64,000 nucleotides of DNA from positions 1 through 64,000 of the forward strand of contig JAAILG010000178.1 in assembly GCA_012026655.1 (NCBI GenBank). Direction: 5' to 3'. The notes under the pieces are model-generated. The model was not told the origin of the DNA. It was given only the letters and a program-made list of their open reading frames with translations, and did not search any database. Of this stretch, positions 40,301 through 62,382 are shown in pieces. This stretch comes from Hydrolagus affinis (Eukaryota). Numbering within the stretch: the first letter of the stretch is position 1; each line of letters starts with the position of its first letter. A program made the translations under genes and the position numbers.

Positions 40301-43300
40301 ATGCTTATCTCAAGTGGCACAATGCCAATCTTTGGGATTCTGTTTCCTTACCAGCTGAGAGTATAATTCAATGACATTTTGGTTTTACAGAATCTCTGGC
40401 AACTGAACGCAGAGAAGGTTGGAATTCCACCAAAGTGTTTTCGAAACAAGCCTAATTTGCTGGAGATTATGAGAAGCTACCCACGCTCATGATGAACAAC
40501 AGGTAAGGAGAGGGATAGGGGGGTGGGGGGGAGGGGGGTGGGAGTATTGGCAGTCAAACTACCATCCTGTTTGTATAGAGCGGATATAGTACTTAATAAA
40601 GATGGGAATACATTTAAACTCCCTGCCTCTCTCTCTCTCTATGATCTTTTGTTGAACTTAGGTCAAACTATTTTTACTTTTGAATATTATTATTCAACTT
40701 GAGTGCTTATCTCAGGGTTTGTTGAATCACTGTGAACTACAGACTATTCCTGCACAATTCAGAGGGAACTTGTACATATCACAACACACAAAACATTACT
40801 TTTAGTTTTGCCAATTAAAAAAAACATTAAAAAATGTACGGCAACACATTTTGCTCCCTAATCGTGGCTGATGTGTTGATTTTAGTTGCATTTCCATCTC
40901 TGGGGAAAGTAAATTCCCTTTACATAAACGAACAAACAATTTGACAGAAGGATCTTAAAGTTCTGGGGTCTGTGGTAGGTTAGCAACACTACTTACTGGT
41001 TTTACAAATTGAAAACCAGAAGAAGCTAACAATACGCTGATTTGGTATGTTGAACCTTTGGTTAAACCCACTATTCAATCATACTTTCAGGGCTAAAAGA
41101 TTTTCCAAGAAACACTTTCAAACCATTGTAGCAGCGTCTGTTAATCCACTTTTGCAACCATCTCCCTGATTTTATAAGGTATAAATAAGCAGAGAAAACT
41201 TCTACTCTTTCGCAAAGTTGATGCTCATGTGTTTTCTGGTCCATGTCCAACCAACCCTTTAGTCTAAAATGTGTTGTACTTCAGTTTTATTTTCCTGGGA
41301 AAGGATTTGTGAGAGACAGTGGCCAACCAAAACACTTCACTATTCTAAAGTTTGCCTTTTAAAGAATAAGCAGCAACATTGATTCAAATTGTTCATCTTT
41401 ATTAGGCATTGATGCAGCCTGACTGAAGTTTATAATTGGCATTGACTTTTCACAAATACCTTTCATGTGGTCATGAATGTTTAGCGCACGAAGAGTTCAT
41501 GTGCAAACTATTTTAACCTTTTCATTGCCAAACACAGCTCTTTTGCACAACATCTTCAAACGTAACTTCTGTAATTTTTATAAGCAATGGTAAAATACAG
41601 TCAGTAGTCAGAAGGAAGGATGGAAATGCTTGGAAAGATAAGAGTCTGACATCAGTAAATGTGATGCTCATCTCAAACAATAATACAGTAGATTGCAAAT
41701 GCTACATATACAACCATTCTGGTAGTTCTTGTTTCAAAGTGATTTAATCTGCAAATAGATTGCCCTGAAACTTAGACTGTCCAGTGCCTTGGGATGTCCT
41801 CCCAACGTGAAAGGTGCGATACAAATCTAATGTTGTTGTTGTTTACCAAACGCTAGTTAATATAGAAAATATGGAAATATAAAATATATTTTTTTAAATA
41901 GAAAATTATAGAAAATAATTGTACATTCACACAGTTGTGCCCTAAAGAAGTTGTTTATTTAACATTTCAAATTATTTAACATTCATTGCAAAAACATTTT
42001 TTCCATTAGTGGCAATAAGGTGGATTTGTTTGGTGCATCAAGTATAATGCAGTAAACAAATGACTGATGGTACTTTCTGTAAGGCTGTTAATGTTGTGAG
42101 CGTGCATTGGAATTCAGTGTTGTACTATGCAAGTATGCAGGCAAAAATAAGAAAATGTTTGGGGCTGATTAGATTCATGCCTCAAAGGAAATTTGCCAGC
42201 ATGATTTCTGATGTGCCAATCCTATGAGGGCAAATGATTTGAGAAAGCCCAGCATCTGAGAAAGCAAAAAGATAAAGAGAATGAGAATCCAGGCAATTAC
42301 TGGACTGACTGAATCGGATGATTTCATATCATTATTTGTCATCCTGAATTAAACATTAGCTTCAGAGTAATAAATGTTGGTAACTGTGACTGTAATTCTG
42401 CCATGAGGACAAAATTAGAAATAATAGTTGAATACTTCCCACACTCCTTCACTTTTCTGTTTATATTACTGTATCTGCTTTTGAATAAAACCCATTTAAT
42501 CACTCCTGAATTGCTTACAAATACACAGTCACCACATTTGATAGTGAGTCCCTGTGTAGCAGATTTAAATGTTTAATGTTAAAGGCGCTATATCAAAGGC
42601 CAAGATTTTTTTCCCTCCCCCTAAATTGTTCAAGATTCAAGCCTTTCATTTACTTTACTTTGATTTCCTCCATTGCTGCTCAAACCAAGTCAAGTTTAAA
42701 ACATCGGAAGTCAAGGGATAAGATGTTAAAAGTGGACGGAAAGAGGGAAAAAGAAAATTGCCAGTTGAATGAGAAGGTGATTAAAGGTTTAACTCTTAAC
42801 CTCAAATTGGTTTTCACTTTTATATACTGTATTTACTTTCCTAATCGGCAAGCAATTCACAACAAAGAGCAATGTTTGTTTGCACTTATTTGTTCAATTT
42901 AGGTGAAAATGTGCAAAGTGTAAATGTGACATTTATGTTTATTTTGATAGTGGAAAGAATCACCTGGTAACTAAATTGTGCTACAAAATTGCCGAGATGA
43001 TATTCTGCGAGATCATGTTGAAAGTGTATGCAATACACTGTTTAAATAACTGAAGATCTCTCTCTATCAGCTAGCCAGTCATCACCAGTCAGCAGTCTGG
43101 CTTATTGGGGACATATGTTCAATATTGCAGTGACTTCACCACCCTGATACTTTAACCCCACTGAGAAGGATTCAATCTTTTATACAGTGCAATTGCTGTT
43201 GGCTGGACACCAAGTGTCAGGTGTAGGAAAGAATGCTCTGGTATTGTAAATAATTTACACAGTGATATCACATTAAATCCTACCGACTTTCCAGGGTAGA

Positions 43301-45699
43301 AACTTGAAATGAAATCAGAATGTCCTGGAGATCGAGAAGCCAAAGAGTTAGAATGACGAATTGCTTACATAGGAACATCAACAAGAAAAACAGCAATAGG
43401 ATCTTTTTGGATGTTGTATCGAATTCTGATTAAACAGATTTCTCTCTCACAAAACCACAGTATTGGCTACTGGAATACAACAATCAAATAAAGCACAGCT
43501 TGCCAAATTAGCTGAAATGAACCAAAATAGTCAGACTATTGGCTGTAAGATCTTCAGTTATCTTACTGACTAAAAATGCAACAACAACTTTTATATAGCG
43601 TCCCGGGGCAAATATAATGGGCAGGGGAATTAGAGTTCCCTGTCCTGGTCACTATTTAATTATCTCTTGTGTGGATGAGGAGAGGATGGGTTTCATTGTT
43701 TTAGAGGCAGCATAAAACTCTTTGGGTCACACGTGAGGAATTTTCTCTTGGGCTCGTTAATAGAGACTTCCTTGTGGAACCAGCTACCAATTCGAGTGAT
43801 TGCTTTTAAGGATTGTTGTTTCCAGCTTCTGCTCCTGACATTTGATCAGCACAAGTGCAAATCAGATTTTAATGATCAGAAAATTAACACAGGGCTGAAT
43901 AGCTGAGTAAAATAAAACCAATAGGCTGCAGAGCTACTTACTTTAAGTCCACCTTGCAGCTACCAAATCATCTTACACAGAACACATACTTTAAACCATA
44001 ATGTAAAAAAAATTGGGAGGACAAAAAAAATCATATATTCTCATAGTTCACCGATTTGTTAGATAACATTTCGAAAGATTATATAATAATGTCACTAGAT
44101 TAGATATACCAACTTAACACGTCTCAAAGCAGTTCACAGAACACACTATATAGTGTTGTGACTATGTATTTTGTGGTTGAAACACGGCAGCCAATTAATT
44201 GCGCACAGTGTTAGTTAGATTCCACTGCTCTTCATAAGGCGTGTGGGATGGATTGTGTTTAAAAAAAACATGAAGAGTGACAATCTGCAACTAAACTGGA
44301 TGGTGTTTTTTTCGGTTCCAGTCAGCTTTTGTAGCCTCCAGCAGATTTTTATGTGGCAAGTGGTTCTGGGGCAACCAACTGCTTCCTAGTTGAGCTGCTT
44401 ATCCTCATGGAATATGTGCAGAGTTCAGTGCAATCTCTCAGCTGCCTCATTCACGGATATTTTGAGAAGAATGATGGTCAAATTTGCAGCAAATTAGGAA
44501 CCTCTGCGTGATTCTCTCGCTGGTTACTAGGATACACCATGGTAAGCAATGTGAGTAAATACTGTAACATGCTTGCAATGCCGATTTTTAAAAAAAAACA
44601 CACAAGAAAACGTTCATCAATACCATATATGGTGTACTTGAACAGCCTTCAAATGTCTTTTGAACCCATAGTTTCCATGTGAATCCCAGTCAGTGCGGAT
44701 ATAAAATGATGGAACTTGCTTACAATGCTGTCGCAAAAAAATTAACCAATTTTCAAATGCTCGCCAGCTGTCAACCCTGAGAGGTTAAGCTCCCACTATC
44801 ATGTTCAGGAACTGACAGTTTACATTTTTTTAAATATCACAACAACTTGCATTTATATAGCGCCCCTCACACAGGGTAATGTTCTAAAGCATTTGACAAT
44901 GAGTAGCACGACGCCAAGCTGGGGGGAGGTATCCGTCGGCGCTGTTGAAGAGAAAGATCTTCGAACTATAAAATAAGTCTTTGTCAAATCTATCTTTTAA
45001 AACATATACAGTATATATATATATGTTACATACATTATATATACACACATGCATATATAATATATATATATATATGACAAGGTCATTATATACCAATTGG
45101 TGACCTCGGAACTCACTGGGAACTAAAAATAGAGCACAGTAATTATTTACATCTGTGTCACAGACTCTGTGTGCATTCCAATGATTTTTTTGAAACTTGG
45201 GCATGGGGGAATTACCATATCAGTCACAGCCTTTCCAGCCTCCCCAGCCTACTGCCCTGAAGGCCTAATCACAAGGTCACAAGCAGTACCGGGACTGTAC
45301 TGTACAGTGCATGGCTGACTGCGGTCCCTGCAGCACACAGTTGTCAGGGACAGGAGGAATGTGTGGTATGGGCCGAGCGCAATGAATTATCTTAAATTGA
45401 CCATCACATATTTTGCTGCTTGTGGTCGTGGCCTAAATAGTGTCCCCGGATCCCCTTTAGATGTAGATTCTCTGCATTGTCAGAAGTTAGGTAAACATAC
45501 TTTGAGCTAGTTTCCCCGCACTCTGCCTCGTCAGTTGCTGTAATTAGTGGAAGCTAATATTTGGGATGGTTTCATACCAAAGACGATTGCGCTTTCATGG
45601 ACAGGCACCCATTTTTAATGAGCTTATTTTCAGTCAAAATGTGTCATTTTGCATTAGATTGGGTTCTAGCAGTCTTGCGTAAATGTTCTGCTGAGATTT

Positions 45700-45811
45700 C
45701 AAATCTATTTATAGTTTTATCAAATTATCTTACTTTGCAGGCAATATAACACTCTGGAACACAGCAGAAAGGTACATCCGGTGTTTCATTCACCTCACAG
45801 CTCAGGAACAG
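45700..45811 (+). promoter_or_regulatory. Candidate promoter and non-coding first exon of the NRAC-like gene
   Basis: MEF2 consensus CTATTTATAG 45705-45714, two reverse-strand WGATAA sites (TTATCA 45717-45722, TTATCT 45725-45730), TATA-like AATATAA ~45743, and donor CAG|gtaagg at 45811. Confidence 0.4.
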
Positions 45812-45860
45812 GTAAGGAGATACTTGACAGCGCCTTGCCTTAGGATATTAAATGTTTATA

Positions 45861-46050
45861 TAATAATCCTTGCATTTGATATTGCGCTTTTCACATCTTA
45901 TCGACTTCCCAAAGCGCTTCACAGAATATACTGTAAAGTGAATTGACTGTATATTTGTGGGCGAATCGCGGCAACCAGTTGTGCACAGCAGTGTCCCACA
46001 AACAGTCATGGACTGAAATTACCAATTTTATTATTGTGGTTTTTTTTTTG
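45861..46050 (-). mobile_element. 5'-truncated SINE in the putative first intron of the NRAC-like gene
   Basis: taataatccttgcatttgatattgcgc...gcagtgtcccacaaacagtc matches the family. Confidence 0.85.
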
Positions 46051-46281
46051 GCTTGGATAAATACTGATAGAGATTGTGTATTGTGTGTAGAATGGACAAG
46101 GATCATGGACAGAATTGAAGTTCTCTGAGGCCTTCATCCTTTGAGAACAATGTTTCAGTGCAAGTTGGTGTTCTTATTGAATGCCGTTTTCTAGATTCTT
46201 ACTCTCTTATTTTCTTGTTGGATCAGACACTGTATGGCAGTGAACATTTAGACACTACAAAGACCTTTGAACATTTCACCG

Positions 46282-46317
46282 ATGCATACAGAGAAATCAA
46301 CAGAGCAAAGTAATCAG
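46282..46317 (+). CDS. Putative first coding segment of the NRAC-like gene (MHTEKSTEQSNQ), within exon ~46227-46317
   Basis: Pyrimidine-rich acceptor ttttcttgttggatcag| at 46226 and consensus donor CAG|gtaagt at 46317, phase 0. Start codon is uncertain (see finding). Confidence 0.45.
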
Positions 46318-47084
46318 GTAAGTTTCTTTGCATATTACTGGCCATAATGACAAGGCCTTAAGATTCATACTAAAATATGACTTGCACTTAAGACCAATAT
46401 TTTCAGAAATATTTCTGTATCAATGAACGATGAAAGGGTTTAAGCACTTTTGCTTATCCCTGGTAACAGAAATTGTTACAATATATTTTCTGTACACTTA
46501 TTGATTTTAAAACCCCCATCACAAATTGAGACAGTGAAACTGCTGCTCAGTTGACCATTGGCTCAATTATGTAATGGTGAGCCAGACACATTTTTCTTGG
46601 TGAATTTTTGTAACAAATATGTTTAGGCAACTCCAATTAACAATGTATAATAAAAAGTAACAATAGCGTTTTTGAGCATCTCACAGGATTTACAAGAATC
46701 TAGTCATTTCCAGCACATTTTACATTAACACACTTTTTTTGGCTACCTCTTTGTTTTTACGAATCCTATTCAGACTTATTCAAGGTTTAAAATTATACTG
46801 GGTGGTGCAGAAAGTGATACATCATTTCCAGGTGTAGGAGTGCGGATGGATGAATTAAGATGTCCTTTCCAAATGAAGTTCTAATCTATCGAACAATTCC
46901 AATGCAAGTACAGGCCACGCCATTGATGTGGTACAAATACTTTTACAAAAGACATTTGAATCGACAGGTTTAAAGAATGAATGAATTTTTAAATAAGCGG
47001 GGGCTGTTTTTTCAAAGTTGATCTATTTGATTTCAAACAACACAAACTCGTATGTGCATTTCAACCAAGATTCTCCAGACTATA

Positions 47085-47394
47085 GGGAGTCCTGCAGCTC
47101 AGTGGTGAGAGCACTCATATGCAAGAGACCTGGGTTCAATGCCAGGCAGGGTGAAACCTTGGGTGAGTTTTCTTACTCCACACACCAAATAATAATCCAT
47201 CAAAAAAAACACAATAATAAATTGGTTATTGCAATACATGACTGTTTGTGGGACACCACTGTGTGCAATTGGCTGCCGCATTTCACCCACATATATATAC
47301 ACGGGCAATTCACTTTACAGTATATTCTGTGAATCGCTTAGAGACGCCGAGAAGACGTGAAAAGTGTGATATGAAATGCAAGGATTATTATTAT
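47085..47394 (+). mobile_element. Near-full-length tRNA-derived SINE (dominant family of the window)
   Basis: Head GGGAGTCCTGCAGCTCAGTGGT (A box) ... GGGTTCAATGCC (B box). Body has a Deu-like ctgtttgtgggacac..tgtgcaattggctgccgc segment. Tail gcaaggattattattat. Confidence 0.85.
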
Positions 47395-47414
47395 ACAGCT
47401 GTACTCTATCTCAG

Positions 47415-47540
47415 GATTCTGCAGCTGATCAGCCACTGGAAGTTTCGAATAAGATTTTACCACAGTGGCTTGGAAATGATCCAGTTGCCAGAGTTCAGAA
47501 AACACATACGTTCTCTGCAGAAACGTGCAACACACAGGAG
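47415..47540 (+). CDS. Putative NRAC-like exon (DSAADQPLEVSNKILPQWLGNDPVARVQKTHTFSAETCNTQE)
   Basis: Acceptor ctgtactctatctcag|, donor GAG|gtactt, 126 nt, open, phase 0-0, frame-compatible with neighbouring exons. No recognisable homology. Confidence 0.5.
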
Positions 47541-48754
47541 GTACTTTTCAGCGATTTAAAACAAATATAAAACTCTACATGGATCAGTATCGCATAACGA
47601 CTACTGTATAAATGATTCTATAGTTATAAAGTTATTTCATATTTGTTGACTACTAAATAGGGATAGAATTGGACTAAATATCTCTAGAATGTAAGAACTT
47701 TCAAATTAGTCGAGTGAGGAGGTCACCAGAGCTTACGTTTATTCTTAATGGACAAATGTTATTTGAGCCTCTGTTCTGTCCAGTAATTTCCTCCTTGTTT
47801 TCTCTTCCCTGGTTTCTGTTTTCGTTCTATCTCATTGTGTTTTTTTTTACCTCTTTCCTGTTATGTTTCCACTCCAAGCATTAAATTATGCGCAGTGTGA
47901 ATGCTCTAGTAGATCTTTAATTGGGTGGAAAATTAGTTGTGAAAGCAATGTCATTTGTCTTTGCCTTTGTCAAATCCGAAGAAATAAATATGTATAATAC
48001 TCCATTTAACATATATATGAAACCACCATAGGATATCAGAAAACGTTTCATAATTCAATGCATCGAGAGGTCATAATTGCAAACAAATTGCACTGAGAGG
48101 AAGAGGCACCTCAGTGGCACTCGTCTACAAAGCAATAGATTCCACACTTAACCATTCGAGTTCACTTGCCCAGGCACCACTGGACCTTAGAGTCAAATTT
48201 GCTCATTCATGACCTTTCCCCCCCACCGTCCACCTCCCATCCCCCTTTCTCTGCAATAGACACAATTACTATCACATCAGAGATTGGCCCGGGCACATCT
48301 GCCATTATAGCCTTTGATCTGCCATCTTTTAGCGTTTCATTTGTCCCCATAGCGCCCTCAGTTTACAGCTAATGGTAATCACTTTCAAATGAAATTCAAC
48401 TACAACCTTCAAGATGACTGAAGGGATCAGAAAGACAGCAGAAAGGTAAAGGATCAGTTGAGATAACGAAACTAAAGCCAGACGAGAGTAGGTAGAAAAT
48501 ACAGTAGCATTCAATAAAAGTGAAATTATAAAATTATACAGAAAATAAAGAGAAAAGTGATGTATCGTTTTTTTTAAAAAAAATATAAGCATCTTGAGGG
48601 GGGGGGAAATAAAATCAGGATCAAGTTGTTTCAATTGGAACATCAAAATCCCAAATTGTTTGCTTGAAACCTTATGGATACAGTTTGCTTAAACATAAAA
48701 CTGTCTAAACTAGACATGGAGATGCTGAAATACATGGCTGTATAAAAGAGATAG

Positions 48755-48975
48755 TTGATTGGCAGATCGCTTTTCCCAGTGGTAATAATTCCTTTTTAAA
48801 AAAATTGGTCACGTCAATACACACTGTTTGTGGGACATTGCTGTGCGCAATTGGCTGCCACGTTTCACTCATCATAAAATATACAGTCAATTCACTTGAC
48901 AGTATTCTGTGAAGCGCTTTGAGATGCCTCGAAGGCGTGATAAGGCAATATATCAAATGCAAGGATTATTATTAT
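48755..48975 (+). mobile_element. 5'-truncated SINE abutting the 49001 acceptor
   Basis: ctgtttgtgggacattgctgtgcgcaattggctgcc...tcaaatgcaaggattattattat. Confidence 0.85.
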
Positions 48976-49000: not shown

Positions 49001-49142
49001 CAGGCAATTGGACTAAAATGGCCAATCTCTATTCTGAGGACAAGGTCGAGCGGAACATTGTATGAAGGGAACTGTACATCTCTCAAGAGGAGATCACAAA
49101 GGAGGGTTCATTTTCGAGAATCAGATGAGATAATTTTGCCCA
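49001..49142 (+). CDS. C14orf180: C14orf180/NRAC-like internal exon (QAIGLKWPISILRTRSSGTLYEGNCTSLKRRSQRRVHFRESDEIILP)
   Basis: Acceptor gttttgaaacccag| (tandem CAGCAG), strong donor A|gtaagt, open frame, phase 0-1. KWPISILR...RRVHFRE resembles recalled human NRAC KCPPSILK...RRVWFRE. Position convergent with TMEM179 fits human 14q32.33 order. Confidence 0.8.
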
Positions 49143-49724: not shown

Positions 49725-49950
49725 AGTCAATCAGCGGATTGCTTTTCTGGGGGTAATAATTCCTATTGCAAAAAAAGTCACTCAATCCACGACTGTTTGG
49801 GCGACACTGCTATGCACAATTGGCTGCCATGTTTTGCCCACAAAATATGCAGTCAGTTCATTTTACAGTATATTCTGTGAAGAGCTTTGAGAAATCTTGA
49901 AGATGCCATAAGGCTCCATATTAAATGCAAGGATTATTATTATTATCATC
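49725..49950 (+). mobile_element. 5'-truncated SINE
   Basis: ctgtttgggcgacactgctatgcacaattggctgcc...aaatgcaaggattattattatc. Confidence 0.85.
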
Positions 49951-54068: not shown

Positions 54069-54268
54069 CTCATGAACACTATTCCCCAGCACCATCACCA
54101 TTGCAGCTTTTTGCGTTCATTGTTTTGCTGAGCCTGCTGATTGTGTTACTCTATTGCAATAAGTGTCCCTCTAAGGTCTGTGAACAACTTGGGTCGAAAC
54201 TTCTTAGCTTCTATCTGGACATCAAGCACATTGCAATCAGATGCTGGCACCGATGGATGAAAAAGTAA
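54069..54268 (+). CDS. C14orf180: C14orf180/NRAC-like terminal exon with TM helix (HEHYSPAPSPLQLFAFIVLLSLLIVLLYCNKCPSKVCEQLGSKLLSFYLDIKHIAIRCWHRWMKK*)
   Basis: Acceptor ttgttgtattttttcag| in phase 1, compatible with the 49142 donor (A|CT = Thr). Hydrophobic stretch plus LYC and ..LL....L.H.A..CW pattern as in recalled human NRAC C-terminus. TAA ends at 54268. Confidence 0.8.
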
Positions 54269-54459
54269 GACATCCGCAAACACTGGGAGCATCAAAACAC
54301 AGCTTGGTTTGGACACTCCCTTTCAGCGGAGCAATCTTGGCTGAATGATGTTACAAAGGCAAGCTGTTCAACATCACTTAGCCACAGTCGGTGGTGGTTA
54401 GAAACAATTGGTTGAACACAAGACAAAATGACAATGAACCTTCTGAATTTGCTGTCATG

Positions 54460-54925
54460 ACCCCATCTCCCACATTCCCACCCAACTCCATTGGCTCCCA
54501 TCACCCAGAGCATTCAATTCAAGATCCTGGTCCTCAATTTCAAAGTCCTCCTCGGCCTCGCCCCACCCTTCCTTTGCGACCTCCTAACCTGCCTGCCCCC
54601 TCCGCTCAACAGGCTCTGGCCTGCTGCACTTCCCCCAAACCACCCACCCCACCACTGGCAGGCAAGCCTTCAGCCACTCTGCCCCCAACCTCTGGAACTC
54701 CATTCTCCGGTCCCGATGCCTCACCCCTTCCCTGGCCTCCTTCAAGTGCCGCCTCAAGCCCCTCCTCTTCGACGGTCCCATCGGTCACACCAAATCCCCC
54801 CCCTTTCCTTCCACCCTCTTCGTCCCCGACCCCAACTGGGGTTTGAAACAGTGACTGTCCAGCGCCTTGGGACGTCCTCCTGATGTAAAAGGTGCTGTAC
54901 AAGTGTCATTTTGTTGTTGTTGTTG
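54460..54925 (+). mobile_element. L2-clade LINE 3' fragment
   Basis: Frameshifted ORF2 C-terminal motif LHWLP-ITQSIQFKILVLNFKVLLGLAPPFLCDLL, then a 3' tail cagcgccttgggacgtcctcc..aaaaggtgct..(GTT)n. Confidence 0.85.
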
Positions 54926-56447
54926 GTTCAATTTTCCTCTGCAATGTTTTTGAAACCTCGGACTTCATTCTGTTTTTATTTTAAGATGGCATTGTCAACA
55001 AAATGTTTATTTCAAATATTGTGAAATTTAGCTACTGGCTCAACTGAAGATCCACTAACAGTGAAGGTTGCAATCCAACTCCCATCTCTTGGGAGTCACC
55101 AACATCAGAACCTAATCAATCCAATTGTTGGAAATGTTTACCTGAATGAAGATGTATTATTGCCCTACACAAAGCATGGTACCTTCCATTCCCAGATCCT
55201 ATTTAATTCGACCCCTCCCACGCTTTACACAATATCTTTGTCCCAATGCCTTGGATAATCAGTTAATTACTGGTCCATTGCCTAAGGAGTATGGAAACAC
55301 TGCAAATACTACAATGTGAATCAGACATGCATGGATAGCCTGATTAGAATCAATTGGTTTTAGAAATAGTTTTTGATTCCTATTTTACTCTGGTCAGCAG
55401 GGCATCAGACACAAGCATAAGGGACATCATCACCATTATTAAGGTATCCAAATCAGACAAGAGTTCCACAAATGTATCCCACTTACACACGGAGATTTCC
55501 CTGTGTCTGGAATGGGCACTCTTTCCCTTCAGGGATGCCCTGCTTACCTAATTCCAGAGAGTATTAGGTGTCGGGTGGCAAGAATCAAGGCCTGTGGTGC
55601 GGCTGGAGATAACTAGCTACGACTGTGCTGCTTGCCATTGAAAACATTGTCGGCACGTTTCCTGCTGCATGTCCATCCATTAGAGCTTTAGCTTGCAGGG
55701 TAAACATACACTAAACGAAGAAAGTTTGCCTCCAGAAATTCCCATGTTACGGCACAAATCGTCTCTCAGTGTGACATCGATTTATAATCTACACATGTTA
55801 GGATTCACAGCTGACTTGAGACATTTTCTTGGAGACCATTGTGAATCGTGTGATCTGTGATGAGTAGCTGCACTGCAGTAAGATATTCTTGAAGCAAGCC
55901 AACTCTGAAAAAAGTGTACATGAATCTGACAGCAGTATTTCCACCAGCCTGTTTGACTGTAACATTTCTGGAAGCCACATGCTGTCTGCCTAGGAGTATT
56001 GTAATGCTATGTTAATGCTATTTGATCTATGCCCCTTATGTCCTGGTTTAAGGTAGATGTTAGTATAATCAGTAAAAAAAACTGAATTCGTTGAAAATAT
56101 GGGATTCAGTTTTGTACTATCGACCTCAGTAGATTAGTTTTCTCACCGGATAATTGTTTTATGGAAGACTTTCTTTGCTGAAGTTGATGGGTTCAAAGAG
56201 AATATAGATTACAGGCAGTAATTGTTGAATGGCAGGTATGGGATTGAATGCAATAAAAAGGCCAAATTAATTGTAAATCCAACATTCCTGCAATTTCCCC
56301 ACACTAGTGGTCTTTCACAGTATTAACTGTTATATTAATGGCAGAATTCTTGATGACGCTTAACACCTAAATTGATAAAATTCTGCAGTTAAGAAGCAAT
56401 CTAGTGTAACCTTTCCATTAATCTACTGTCGCATTTCAGCTACTTGT

Positions 56448-56740
56448 GGAGTTCTGTAACTCAGTGGTTAGAGCACTTACCTCGCAAGTGGGAGACCTGA
56501 ATTTGATTCCCAGCAAGTTTCCTTATTTCACATGCCTCTGTTCACCTAGCAGTAAGTAGGAACCCAGTGGTAATAATTCTTTCAAAAAATAATAAATTGA
56601 TCACTGTTTGTGCGACACTGCTATGTGCAATTGCCTGCTGAATTTTTCCCCAAAAAGTCAATTTACTTTACAGTATATTATGTGAAACGCTTTGAAACGT
56701 CTTGAAGATGCGATAACTCACTAAATAGGATTATTATTAT
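56448..56740 (+). mobile_element. Near-full-length tRNA-derived SINE
   Basis: A box aactcagtggtt, B-box-like atttgattccc, central gcctctgttcacctagcagtaagtagg, Deu-like 3' segment, (TTA)n tail. Confidence 0.85.
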
Positions 56741-58590
56741 TCCTTGGCAACCATGTACATTTTAAAATATTGTTGCTGGTTATATTTTTTCTGATACTTT
56801 TTAGAACAATGCATAATTTATCTAGTTAGTTTATTTTTCATATTTTATCAGAATGTGTTTCAATTTAGTATTAGTTGCAAGAGTGCCCCCAAAGTATCAT
56901 GGAATAGAAATAATTTTGTTACCATTTCAGAACTTGCTTACAATGTGGAGAGAAGGAAAAATAATTGTAAATGGCATAAATCTGAAATAAAAACAGAAAC
57001 ATTTTGGAAATCCATAACATCTGTTGAGAGTGATGGGTTTAAAGTTCCATTAATTCAGAATGATTGTGCAATAAGAATTAGGATCTTTCAAATGCACTGC
57101 CTTTTGAATTATATCTGGATGAATGCATCCTTTGCAGCACAGTTTTGCTGTGTGTAAATTGCCTTACTGCACTACTGACTCTATAAGAAGTCCTGTAAAC
57201 TGCTTTGTTGTCGTAATAATTGCAATACCAAATTGCAAGGATTATTATTTTCTATTGATGAAAAATGACAGCGCAGGTAGGACAAAAGTGGTAATGGCTC
57301 TCAAAATTCAACACTTGAAGATCAGAAAGTTAAAATTTCCCTTTGCAGGATGAAGAGTGAAGAGGAGGGAATCTTTTCAATGTTTTACTTTCTAGGAAGT
57401 TTTATAGCTGGTGTTAAGCCTCCGTTGGACAAATTTGTGATCTTTCCCCATACTTTGTAGGCACCAAGATGACAAAAAGGTTAAGGGACAGCAAAAGTAA
57501 TTTTCTATACTTCCATTCTTTTCCTAGTTTCTAAACCATGTTGCTGCAGTTATTGAAGCATTGAGTAACGTAAATCTGAAAGTGCTTATTTGATCCGAAT
57601 GACAAAAAAAGTGCCCAAGCAAATGTAAACAAGCGTTTGAGTGAATTTAATTGAATACTTTTTCAGGAAATACACAGGACACAGTACAATCAAGGTTAAA
57701 GAATTGACATTAATAATAAAGATACTTTTTTTTATGAGCAGCATATGGCACAGTAAAAGGCTGTCGCTGTCTACTACTAAGCTTCAATTGCCGCCGTTCA
57801 CTTTATTAGCCTGAAGTGAGCCAGTGATTTAAGGTGGAACATTCAGTAGTGCAAAGGAGCAGCTGCTTCTAAGGCCATCATAACCACAATTTTCTAAGCA
57901 GTGCAGATGAGATTTCCAAGACTGAAAGCAATGTATTCAGCAGTCTTTGAAACATGTTCAGCTCTATCCAAAATCATAGCTCCGAGCATCTTGGCCCTAA
58001 TGTGCTGAGCACGAACAGAAGTATTCAGCAGCACCAGCCACAAGCTACAATAACTGACACAATTTGTTCATTTGATTTCAGCACAATTCATGGTAGCAGT
58101 GATAATGAATGACATGCTGAATAATGCAGTGTGACAAATTCGGAAAGTGCCTTAAATATTTCAAGACATTTCTAAGATCGGGGTGCATGGAATTAATTAT
58201 TTAGTTTGATACTGTAAAACAGGATAAATTGTTCCGACTTATGGCGCTAAGCCTTTGACGTCTAAAGCAGAGTCGCACAAAGAAAGTTTACATTGAGCCA
58301 AGGCGTTACAGCAACCTTCAGTTTGGGAGGTTTTGTGGCAAGACACTTTAGAAAATGACTACATTCGCAGGTTAACAAAACTTAGGCACTGAAAGAATAG
58401 CATTCATAGTTGTAGAGATTCTTAAGACACCCAACGTATATTGAGTGGGAGGCAAATCCTGAAGAGCAACTCTCCTGTTTTACAGTACCTTTGCATTGAT
58501 TCCTCTTTGACAAGCAATGCAGAATCACCCTCTCCTGTTGCGGCTGTTTGAAACATCCTTTCTTCATCATTTTCCGTGTTATAACCCGAT

Positions 58591-58806
<216 letters not shown>

Positions 58807-59583
58807 TTAAAAGCAAACTTTGACAACAACAACTTGCATTTCTATAGGGCAAAGGGCGGGAGGGGTAATCTGACCGAATGTGCAGCTAAAAACAAGATAA
58901 ACCTTGTTTTGTTTATAGAAGTAAATAATTTGAATGCAGCCTGGATATTGATTGTTAATGTCAAATTCTGCAAACTCAACAGGGGCAAAAGCATAGAATG
59001 AAACTACTCAATTGCTTTATTTTAGACAATCCACTCATTTGTTTTTCACAGTCAAAACAACAAAAAAGAGGAAATCTACCATTGTCACAGTTAATATATT
59101 TGGTTTATCAAAAACATTGTCTACATAAGAAACTTTTATACAACACCATTTTTTTAAAAGAAAAACTGTCCAAGAATATAATATTTGTGAATTTTCTATC
59201 ACTATACATGGTCGTCTAAACTGAGTGCTCATTGAATGAAGCAATATTTGATTTACAAGCAGCATATTTCTGACAGTGAATCCATTTACAATGATCCTTT
59301 ATTGGGAAGAGTTTCGAGAGACATTGTGCTAATGGCATTTCAATAATTTATCATTGGATTCAATGATAATTGGATTGAACATTTGAATTCCATGGCAAAA
59401 AAAGCTCCGGTAAATGTGCAATGGGCAGGAAGTTATGTCAGTGACAACCTACTGACCTGGAAGTCAAACACAGGAAATCAACCAGTTTTCAAAGTCGATG
59501 CACAAACAGCTGTCAATAGGGCCCTATTATAATGCAGATTACAATTTCTTGGACCTCAAAGGGTTCTACTGTAGTTAGAAAAC

Positions 59584-59930
59584 ATAATAATAATATTTCT
59601 TTCATTTGATATAGTGTCTTATCATGTGTTCGAGATGTCTCAAAAGTGCTTCATTAAGATATAGGATAAAGTGAATTGACTGTCTATTTTGTGGGCAAAA
59701 CGCGACAGCTAATTGTCTACAAGCAGTCATGAATTGAATGACCAATTTTCTTGGAAGAAATTATTACCCCCGAAAAAGCGAACCGCCAATCGACTGACAA
59801 CCAGGTTCCTACTTACTACTAGGTAAACAGAGGCATCTGGAGTAAGAAAACTTGACCTACATTTCACCCTGCCGGGAATCAAACCCAGGTCCCTTGTTTA
59901 TCTCCCGCAAGATAAGTGCTCCAGCCACTC
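59584..59930 (-). mobile_element. Near-full-length tRNA-derived SINE in TMEM179 intron 3
   Basis: Reverse complement of the same family: (TAA)n tail on the left, cctacttactactaggtaaacagaggca centre, gggaatcaaacccagg B box. Confidence 0.85.
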
Positions 59931-60215
59931 CAAAAACTTCGATTTATATAGTGCCCTCCATGCTGGACAGCGTCTCAGAGCGCTTCACTAAGCTACAGGA
60001 CTCCACAATATAGGGTGATAACCAACACAACAACAAACAAAATTATAGAGGGCCTTTCATGTCGGGAGGATGTCCTAAGGTGCTGAAACACCATGTGCAA
60101 TCTAAATTATTCTGTCTAACCAATTCGGTCAGCTGATGCGCTTTGAGACATTCTTCCAATGTCAAACAGCACTTTTATACACTTCACTATATCTTTACTA
60201 TATATCCTGTTGTCA

Positions 60216-60930
<715 letters not shown>

Positions 60931-61010
60931 TTATTCTTCTCACTTTTATTTACTCCTGTAGCACTTTTCATGTGTTAGGTGCTTGGATTTGCCGTTGATA
61001 AGTTTTTCTA

Positions 61011-61301
<291 letters not shown>

Positions 61302-61514
61302 TCAGAGATACAGCTCAGTCTGCATAGGACTGGAGCCAGTGAGCATTCTCCGCCCACACACAGCAGAGGGAGAGAGAGACGCAATAAAGCCCTGAGGAAC
61401 ATTACACTGTCCGTCCATGGCTTTATTTACAAAAGCAACGCCAACACTGACTGACTGTGATCACAAAACTCAGACCTTTCCTATGGGTGGGATTTGATTT
61501 TAACCCTCCATCTC

Positions 61515-61800
61515 TTGTGCAATCGGCTGCCGCGTTTCGCCCGCAAAATAAGACAGCCAATTAATTCCCTTTGCGGGGTGTTCCGCGAAGCGCTTTGAGA
61601 CGTCTAGACGACGCGAAGAGCGCTATAATACTACTCCTGTTAATAATAATAATCCTTACGTTTGATGTGGCGCTTTTTCACGTCTTCTAGACGTCTCAAA
61701 GCGCTTCACGGATCGCGCCGCACAGAGAATCGAACGTAAATTTCCGGGTGAAACGCGGCAGCCCATCCATCGCGCACGGCCGCGGATTGAAATGAACACG
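61515..61800. mobile_element. Inverted tail-to-tail pair of CpG-rich SINE 3' fragments in TMEM179 intron 1
   Basis: Perfect 22-bp inverted repeat 61587-61608 / 61686-61707 and 14-bp inverted repeat 61525-61538 / 61750-61763. Confidence 0.85.
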
Positions 61801-62080
61801 TGTATTATTCCCCCAACAAACAACAACAACAACCCTCGCCTTTGACACAGCGGTGTGACAATCCAAAATGCAAGGAATCCTCCTGATTATTGCCAGCACC
61901 ACCACCACCAATCACAACAGGAAACAACAACAAGATGGACATCAGCTTGCATTGACAAAGCAGCGTCCTCCCCCCACCCCCACCTCCCCATCCCATCTCC
62001 TCACCACCCCCTCCCCACACCCCACCCACCCCTCTCTCTCCTCTCCGTGGCTGGCTGGGTGGGTGGCCTTGACTACCTAC

Positions 62081-62382
62081 TCGTCGTGACCTTTGCAGAG
62101 GTAGAAGAGGAGCCTCCAGGCCTGGATGGCCGACAGGACCAGGGCCAAGAGGACGACGAAACTGGTGAAGCCGCAGGAGGAGGTGGGTCCCCACTCCTCC
62201 ACCACGAAGCGTTGCCTCTCTATCGTGGCGTTCACGTCCTGCCACATGCCGCGGGTGAAGAGCGGGCATCTCCCCTGGAACTGCCGACCGTTCTCCCACA
62301 GCGGCACCACCACCACCAAACCAGACAGGAAAGCCAGGAAATACAGCAGGCACTGGACCCACACCACATTGTTCAGCCCCAT
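62081..62382 (-). CDS. TMEM179: TMEM179 coding exon 1 (MGLNNVVWVQCLLYFLAFL...WRLLFYLCKGHD)
   Basis: ATG at 62382 in a strong Kozak context (accaccATGG). Translation resembles human TMEM179 N-terminus (MALNNFLFAQC..VVVVPLSENG..GRCLLFTEGMW..EWGP..LCKGH). Donor GA|gtaggt, 302 nt, phase 2. Confidence 0.95.

Follow-up and report, generated by a model that had tools for sequence, protein, structure and literature searches.

Does the most conserved part of NRAC, a fat-and-heart membrane protein, serve to dock protein phosphatase 1 (PP1)? The question is raised by a stretch of 64,000 nucleotides from Hydrolagus affinis (contig JAAILG010000178.1, positions 1 to 64,000 of the forward strand; hereafter the window), in which an initial annotation had noticed an NRAC-like protein with a complete set of PP1-docking motifs and had read it as probably a membrane-anchored, kinase-switchable PP1-targeting subunit. 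In 2025 NRAC was described as controlling CD36-mediated fatty-acid uptake, with the role assigned to the transmembrane (TM) helix TM1 only (PMC12436663). Further literature drawn on comprises PMC10066265, PMC5005033 and bioRxiv 10.64898/2026.09.09.750541.

The motifs are carried by a 142-nt, AG/GT-flanked coding exon at 49001..49142 (+), which matches shark NRAC in tblastn (E 3e-9) and has two in-frame acceptors in tandem, at 49001 and 49004, and a phase-1 donor. All of the elements claimed for it, i.e. SILR, KRRSQR, RVHF and II, were recovered in a single plus-strand frame. The SILK-type motif SILR lies at 49028..49039 (+) and is followed, 20 residues from its end, by the RVxF motif RRVHF at 49100..49114 (+; RVHF itself at 49103-49114). 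Upstream of RVHF is the basic run LKRRSQR (49082-49102, +) with a possible basophilic kinase site, KRRS, at 49085..49096 (+), for which family-wide conservation is absent, and five residues past the F of RVHF is the candidate PhiPhi motif II (49130..49135, +). Across the six frames of the window 110 loose RVxF matches were counted, while the ordered SILK+RVxF pair, at a spacing of 7-55, was found once vs 0.18 times per shuffled window (100 shuffles); in shuffles of the 62-residue N-terminus the ordered pair arose in 0.015% of 200,000. As evidence, the pair in the raw DNA is modest; the weight rests on conservation. RRVHF fits the RVxF consensus [KR][KR][VI]x[FW] given in PMC11728760, and SILR fits [GS]IL[RK] and is N-terminal of RVxF. 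An out-of-frame ATG within the same exon opens a 15-codon ORF (49019-49063, +), which is probably meaningless.

The label 'NRAC-like' proved sound, as both coding exons match Pfam DUF4658 (PF15555) in order, the TM exon retrieves NRACs and the tree agrees. The motif exon aligned to profile positions 10-45 (E 0.018) and the TM exon to positions 71-123 (E 0.0024), i.e. to consecutive parts of the profile; the exons were scanned separately, and each stayed below the cut-off of 27 bits (15.7 and 18.5 bits, respectively). The latter is the last coding exon, situated at 54069..54268 (+) and continuing the frame of the motif exon, and it encodes one TM helix (~54098-54154, hydropathy 2.53), a second helix and the stop. 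Used as a motif-free query, it gave four protein matches, three of which were NRACs (two so named and one uncharacterised shark protein); the fourth, P0005, is an unrelated repeat protein and was dropped. In a tree of 33 homologues and the window model, built without an outgroup (no consortin was included), the window protein was sister to seven shark NRACs (support 100/98), and its branch is long (0.64). Its identity to the 33 homologues over the conserved part was 27-49%. NRAC also ranked first in the Atlas search, in which a Consortin_C cluster at 0.78 was treated as a lead only. No match was returned by the Atlas search with the motif region alone, by single-exon word searches, by Rfam or by a PP1 motif scan of viral contigs. 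On these sequence comparisons, the window gene is an NRAC/C14orf180 orthologue.

Conservation was analyzed in 122 homologues, namely 120 listed of 140 matches together with P0002 and P0006, with clades assigned by hand from the source names; top-residue frequencies were taken over 115 named rows with equal clade weights. Among the matches listed, SIL[RK] was found in 121/122 homologues and RVxF in 122/122, separated by a linker of 11-21 variable residues. The mean clade-balanced top-residue frequency, over the named rows among the matches listed, was 0.95 for SILR and 1.0 for RRVxF vs 0.36 for the linker, which bears out the earlier suggestion that these two motifs are the conserved part of a divergent cytosolic region; the same measure among the matches listed gave 0.35 for the N-terminus, 0.51 for the TM helix and 0.47 for PhiPhi. 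The only invariant columns in a 41-row cross-clade alignment were S, I, L, V and F. Since the seeds of the homologue search included motif words, bias checks were made: both motifs were present in 74 of the 75 homologues that shared at least 5 non-motif words with the query (118 examined), and in 3/3 of the NRAC matches of the motif-free TM-exon query. Homologues without both motifs could be under-sampled. The window copy itself departs from near-invariant columns, with H for R at the x of RVxF, W for C and T for K; among the matches listed, x is R in 122/122 homologues, and H at this position also occurs in spinophilin (PMC11536154). These departures, the long branch and two stops in upstream exons (see below) are the reasons why constraint may be relaxed in the window lineage.

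The motifs are predicted to lie in a disordered cytosolic region. Residues 1-68 in the predicted fold of the shark protein P0004 have no helix or strand (pLDDT ~50) and are followed by two helices, and among the matches listed a TM-like stretch lies downstream of the motif in 116/122 homologues and upstream in 1/122, so that the pair stands in a predicted disordered segment ahead of the only TM-like helix. The N-terminus of mouse NRAC is intracellular according to prediction tools (PMC12436663). The published NRAC antibody recognizes mouse residues 29-42, which correspond in chimp numbering to a stretch shortly ahead of SILK (46-49). From the F of RVxF to the best TM window the median distance is 25 residues (homologues among the matches listed). 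A very basic segment this near to the membrane might owe its conserved residues to lipid binding, positive-inside topology or sorting, with the likeness to PP1 motifs incidental, and trafficking roles are on record in the consortin family (PMC9157791). Such an explanation is highly improbable, as the invariant S, I, L, V and F are not basic residues but the hydrophobic anchors of two PP1 motifs in their usual order, and as an NRAC-PP1beta pair is on record (PMC9935395).

Binding of PP1 by NRAC is very probable, and it is not wholly new. In PMC9935395 the pair of human NRAC (Q8N912) and PPP1CB (P62140) carries the label HURI, which denotes two-hybrid pairs, and belongs to the network of high-confidence AlphaFold models, i.e. 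those with pDockQ>0.5. Because binary interaction and model are both contained in this 2023 supplement, the novelty of a PP1 role is lower than the initial annotation assumed; what stands of that claim is that the role goes without mention in the papers on NRAC. PP1 is not mentioned for NRAC in the available text of PMC12436663, PMC3459823 and bioRxiv 10.64898/2026.01.26.701858, nor in the available parts of supplements 1-5 of the first of these, and the open-access literature yielded nothing for C14orf180 with PP1 or for NRAC with PPP1CA. None of the 13 partners recovered by IP-MS of NRAC from mouse fat is named as PP1 in the available text (PMC12436663). A single two-hybrid entry and a model, the latter perhaps shaped by similarity to PP1 complexes of known structure, are not proof. 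Published work credits SILK+RVxF composites with stronger binding than RVxF on its own. When the motif exon was compared with 177,635 PDB sequences, the sole match at E<=10 was NIPP1 (3v4y_B), which at E 1.2 is not significant and is in register over RVxF-x5-II. The NRAC family profile found no PP1 regulator in the PDB, and its only match there, SRP9 (E 0.88), was rejected as chance. NRAC is thus likely a membrane-anchored SILK+RVxF interactor of PP1, hinted at in a high-throughput list and missing from the NRAC papers.

The remaining elements of the motif exon are distributed over the family less evenly. A candidate PhiPhi is present in the window copy, as II, and in 7/7 sharks, but over the family as a whole the position is variable (0.47). 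Strict PhiPhi at +5 was counted in 71/122 homologues among the matches listed, including 7/7 sharks, 0/12 mammals and 0/5 amphibians, and a loose PhiPhi pattern, counted without a control, in 113/122 of them. A conserved kinase switch, which had been proposed as a family trait, is unsupported, because the position of the KRRS serine is S or T in 27/122 homologues, and x of RVxF is never S or T. Among the matches listed, S or T occupies the serine position in 7/7 sharks, 1/1 coelacanth and 11/12 mammals, in 3/78 reptiles and birds and in 0/5 amphibians, and is absent in 8/12 ray-finned fish; the basophilic pattern at KRRS was found in 18/122 homologues, including 2/12 mammals. That phosphorylation of this serine, two residues before RRVHF, would release PP1 from a kinase-switched anchor is therefore rather unlikely, even with S/T held throughout the sharks, in the coelacanth and in all mammals except one, and with docking-motif phosphorylation weakening binding 25-30-fold in Ki-67 and RepoMan. 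The loss of S/T in 75/78 reptiles and birds, 5/5 amphibians and 8/12 ray-finned fish counts against it, as does the scarcity of the basophilic pattern in mammals; moreover, switching acts through the x of RVxF in the documented cases, and all 123 sequences have R or H there. Anchors of the Ki-67/RepoMan type have S/T at or beside RVxF, whereas in NRAC x is never S/T and flanking S/T is found in 27/122.

Upstream of the motif exon are four exons that match longer isoforms of shark and fish NRAC. One of them, homologous to the long isoform by tblastn and profile, is found at 40391..40502 (+) and has an in-frame stop at 40453; another, at 46227..46317 (+), corresponds by homology to the TPR-like segment in fish NRAC, and its ancestral frame is interrupted by a stop at 46311. 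A third at 47394..47540 (+) is homologous to the shark long isoform (tblastn E 1e-10), with an in-frame acceptor at 47415, and a dispersed repeat (47226-47393) borders directly on its 5' edge. A first gene model used an alternative ATG at 46282, in a frame other than the ancestral one of exon 46227..46317; it became the less likely model once the homologues pointed to ATG 40489. The latter follows the stop at 40453, coincides with an internal Met that sharks, coelacanth and ray-finned fish have kept, and corresponds to the Met with which shark protein P0004 starts. Splicing is predicted to lead from ATG 40489 via a predicted 31-nt micro-exon (45741..45771, +) to the motif exon and the TM exon, giving a protein of 128 aa with the length and layout of P0004. 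The micro-exon has fitting AG/GT ends and frame and resembles P0004 by eye; it gave no significant match in searches. The 5' end of the gene, starting at ATG 40489, is a prediction. By the sequence, the long N-terminal form of NRAC looks to have been lost in the window lineage, although the two upstream stops may come from sequencing error. The upstream exons at 40391-47540 (+) suggest that this lineage lost the consortin-like N-terminal part independently.

These stops at 40453 and 46311, together with the repeat at the 5' edge of an exon, the long branch and the unique substitutions, are what would be expected if the window copy were a decaying, transcribed pseudogene whose motifs are relics. 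We regard this as quite unlikely, given that the reading frame runs through both core exons and that their splice sites are intact, that the skip-form starting from the conserved internal Met has 128 aa like shark P0004, and that the changes in the TM exon are enriched for synonymous ones: compared with a relative's contig it has 19 differences and no stop, 10 of the differences being synonymous vs 5.3 expected (P=0.018). RNA reads on the TM exon also count against decay. They come from one sample (two runs), with depths of 11-20 and 2-6 fold, and are all of one orientation, opposite to that over the 3' region of a neighboring minus-strand gene, with no listed differences; the listed intron positions had 0-1 reads. 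The RNA depth of the motif exon is confounded by an adjacent repeat, and no splice junction was seen among the repeat-derived joints. A probable 3' UTR extends over 54269..56257 (+), with the first AATAAA at 56252 and reads of the same orientation in bins up to 56167.

Several other features of the locus were observed. An intronic bin at 47942-48398 (+) had a depth of 17 in the orientation of NRAC in one run and none in the other, and is possibly repeat-derived. The dispersed repeat is SINE-like, ~170 nt long and ends in ATT runs; copies were located at 47226-47393, 45860-46019, 48815-48974, 49783-49942 and 56600-56739, among others, with 14 blastn matches in the window including itself. It is of very high copy number, is abundant in the RNA reads and has no match in Rfam. 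Within the TM exon (54150-54260, +), the TM helix ends in a conserved LYC and the second helix in a C-W motif, both possible palmitoylation sites, and the second helix is weakly hydrophobic in the window copy and possibly amphipathic rather than a second TM helix. Tail-to-tail with NRAC lies a multi-exon membrane-protein gene at 58385-62382 (-), with RNA reads over its 3' region. Pfam gave no useful match for this gene, which reads like TMEM179, presumably the same gene that neighbors NRAC in human.

With the motif pair near-invariant from sharks to primates, NRAC likely tethers PP1 to the membrane, and we put the probability that it is a membrane-anchored PP1-targeting subunit, acting through SILK-type and RVxF docking, at roughly three in four. 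RVxF would be the main PP1 anchor, and SILR would bind a second PP1 pocket across the flexible basic linker of 11-21 residues, as in inhibitor-2, inhibitor-3 and PhosTAP. In some lineages PhiPhi would add affinity, and in cartilaginous fish the acidic stretch and II may provide a NIPP1-like PhiPhi contact. The TM helix of mouse NRAC binds CD36, and CD36, caveolin-1 and cavin-1 are NRAC partners in mouse fat (PMC12436663); a TM helix ~20 residues downstream of the motifs would hold PP1 beside these proteins. The local amount of PP1 would be set by turnover of NRAC rather than by a conserved phosphosite, and the fatty-acid-induced ubiquitination of NRAC that is on record would remove PP1. A role of NRAC-held PP1 specific to CD36 is at present a tentative proposal. 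Similarly speculative is a broader scheme, in which NRAC and consortin would form a vertebrate family of cargo-binding PP1 membrane adaptors, NRAC being the reduced member with hardly more than a PP1 cassette attached to a CD36-binding helix. In this scheme it would bring PP1 to the caveolae of adipocytes and heart, and NRAC ubiquitination triggered by fatty acids would take the local phosphatase away and thereby shift CD36 to clathrin uptake.

Docking motifs serve the recognition of substrates as well as targeting (PMC8786283), and NRAC may be a substrate that docks to PP1, or may sequester or inhibit PP1 at the membrane, instead of acting as a targeting subunit. Inhibitor-2 and inhibitor-3 likewise use SILK+RVxF, and short NRACs hold little cytosolic sequence beyond the cassette (P0112, 115 aa). 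Even so, this is unlikely, as the cytosolic part has no conserved S/T acceptor outside SIL, and between the cassette and the TM helix neither an inhibitory helix nor a CCC-like element is conserved. The most conserved feature of NRAC in jawed vertebrates is a PP1-docking pair in the cytosolic part, outside the TM helix, which makes the mechanistic question on NRAC addressable by a two-residue mutant. PP1 specialists would see nothing unusual in this class of motif, and a high-throughput list already contains the binary interaction.

Consortin is among the closest known systems. Matches of fish and shark NRACs to the Pfam profiles Consortin_C (PF15281) and Consortin_N (PF22883) suggest that NRAC is likely a repeatedly shortened consortin paralogue. 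The Consortin_C cut-off was passed by 4/4 ray-finned NRACs scanned (P0078, P0087, P0090 and P0091) and the Consortin_N cut-off by P0087, P0091 and shark P0002, and the same four ray-finned proteins have a TPR_12-like segment above the Pfam cut-off. Turtle and chicken NRAC matched Consortin_C below the cut-off, chimp NRAC had no consortin match at E<=0.01, and both the TPR_12-like segment and Consortin_N are missing from the tetrapod NRACs scanned. The two core exons in the window matched neither consortin profile (DUF4658 only), and no Consortin_N exon was found in the window. Consortin (CNST) is a catalogued PP1 interactor in which SILK and RVxF precede a TM helix at the C-terminal end; NRAC is much shorter. 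In the open-access literature no report of consortin/CNST as a PP1 or RVxF interactor was found, and CNST is absent from two Burke files. The link likely contradicts the printed claim that NRAC has no related genes (PMC12436663).

Other known PP1 partners share parts of this layout. Inhibitor-2, inhibitor-3 and the engineered PhosTAP (CSRNP linker) have SILK upstream of RVxF with a flexible basic linker, like NRAC, but are soluble, and the two inhibitors add elements that block the active site, none of which is seen in NRAC. NIPP1 (PPP1R8) has a basic run, RVxF, five mostly acidic residues and II-x-P in register with the window exon, a likeness at the motif level only (E 1.2); unlike NRAC, it is nuclear, has a phosphorylatable x, and is without TM helix or SILK in the aligned part. 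Within the NRAC family, the window copy differs in its H at x, where R is found in 122/122 homologues among the matches listed, and in its broken long-isoform upstream exons, and it has in common with the family of human NRAC (Q8N912) the complete layout of SILK, linker, RVxF and TM helix.
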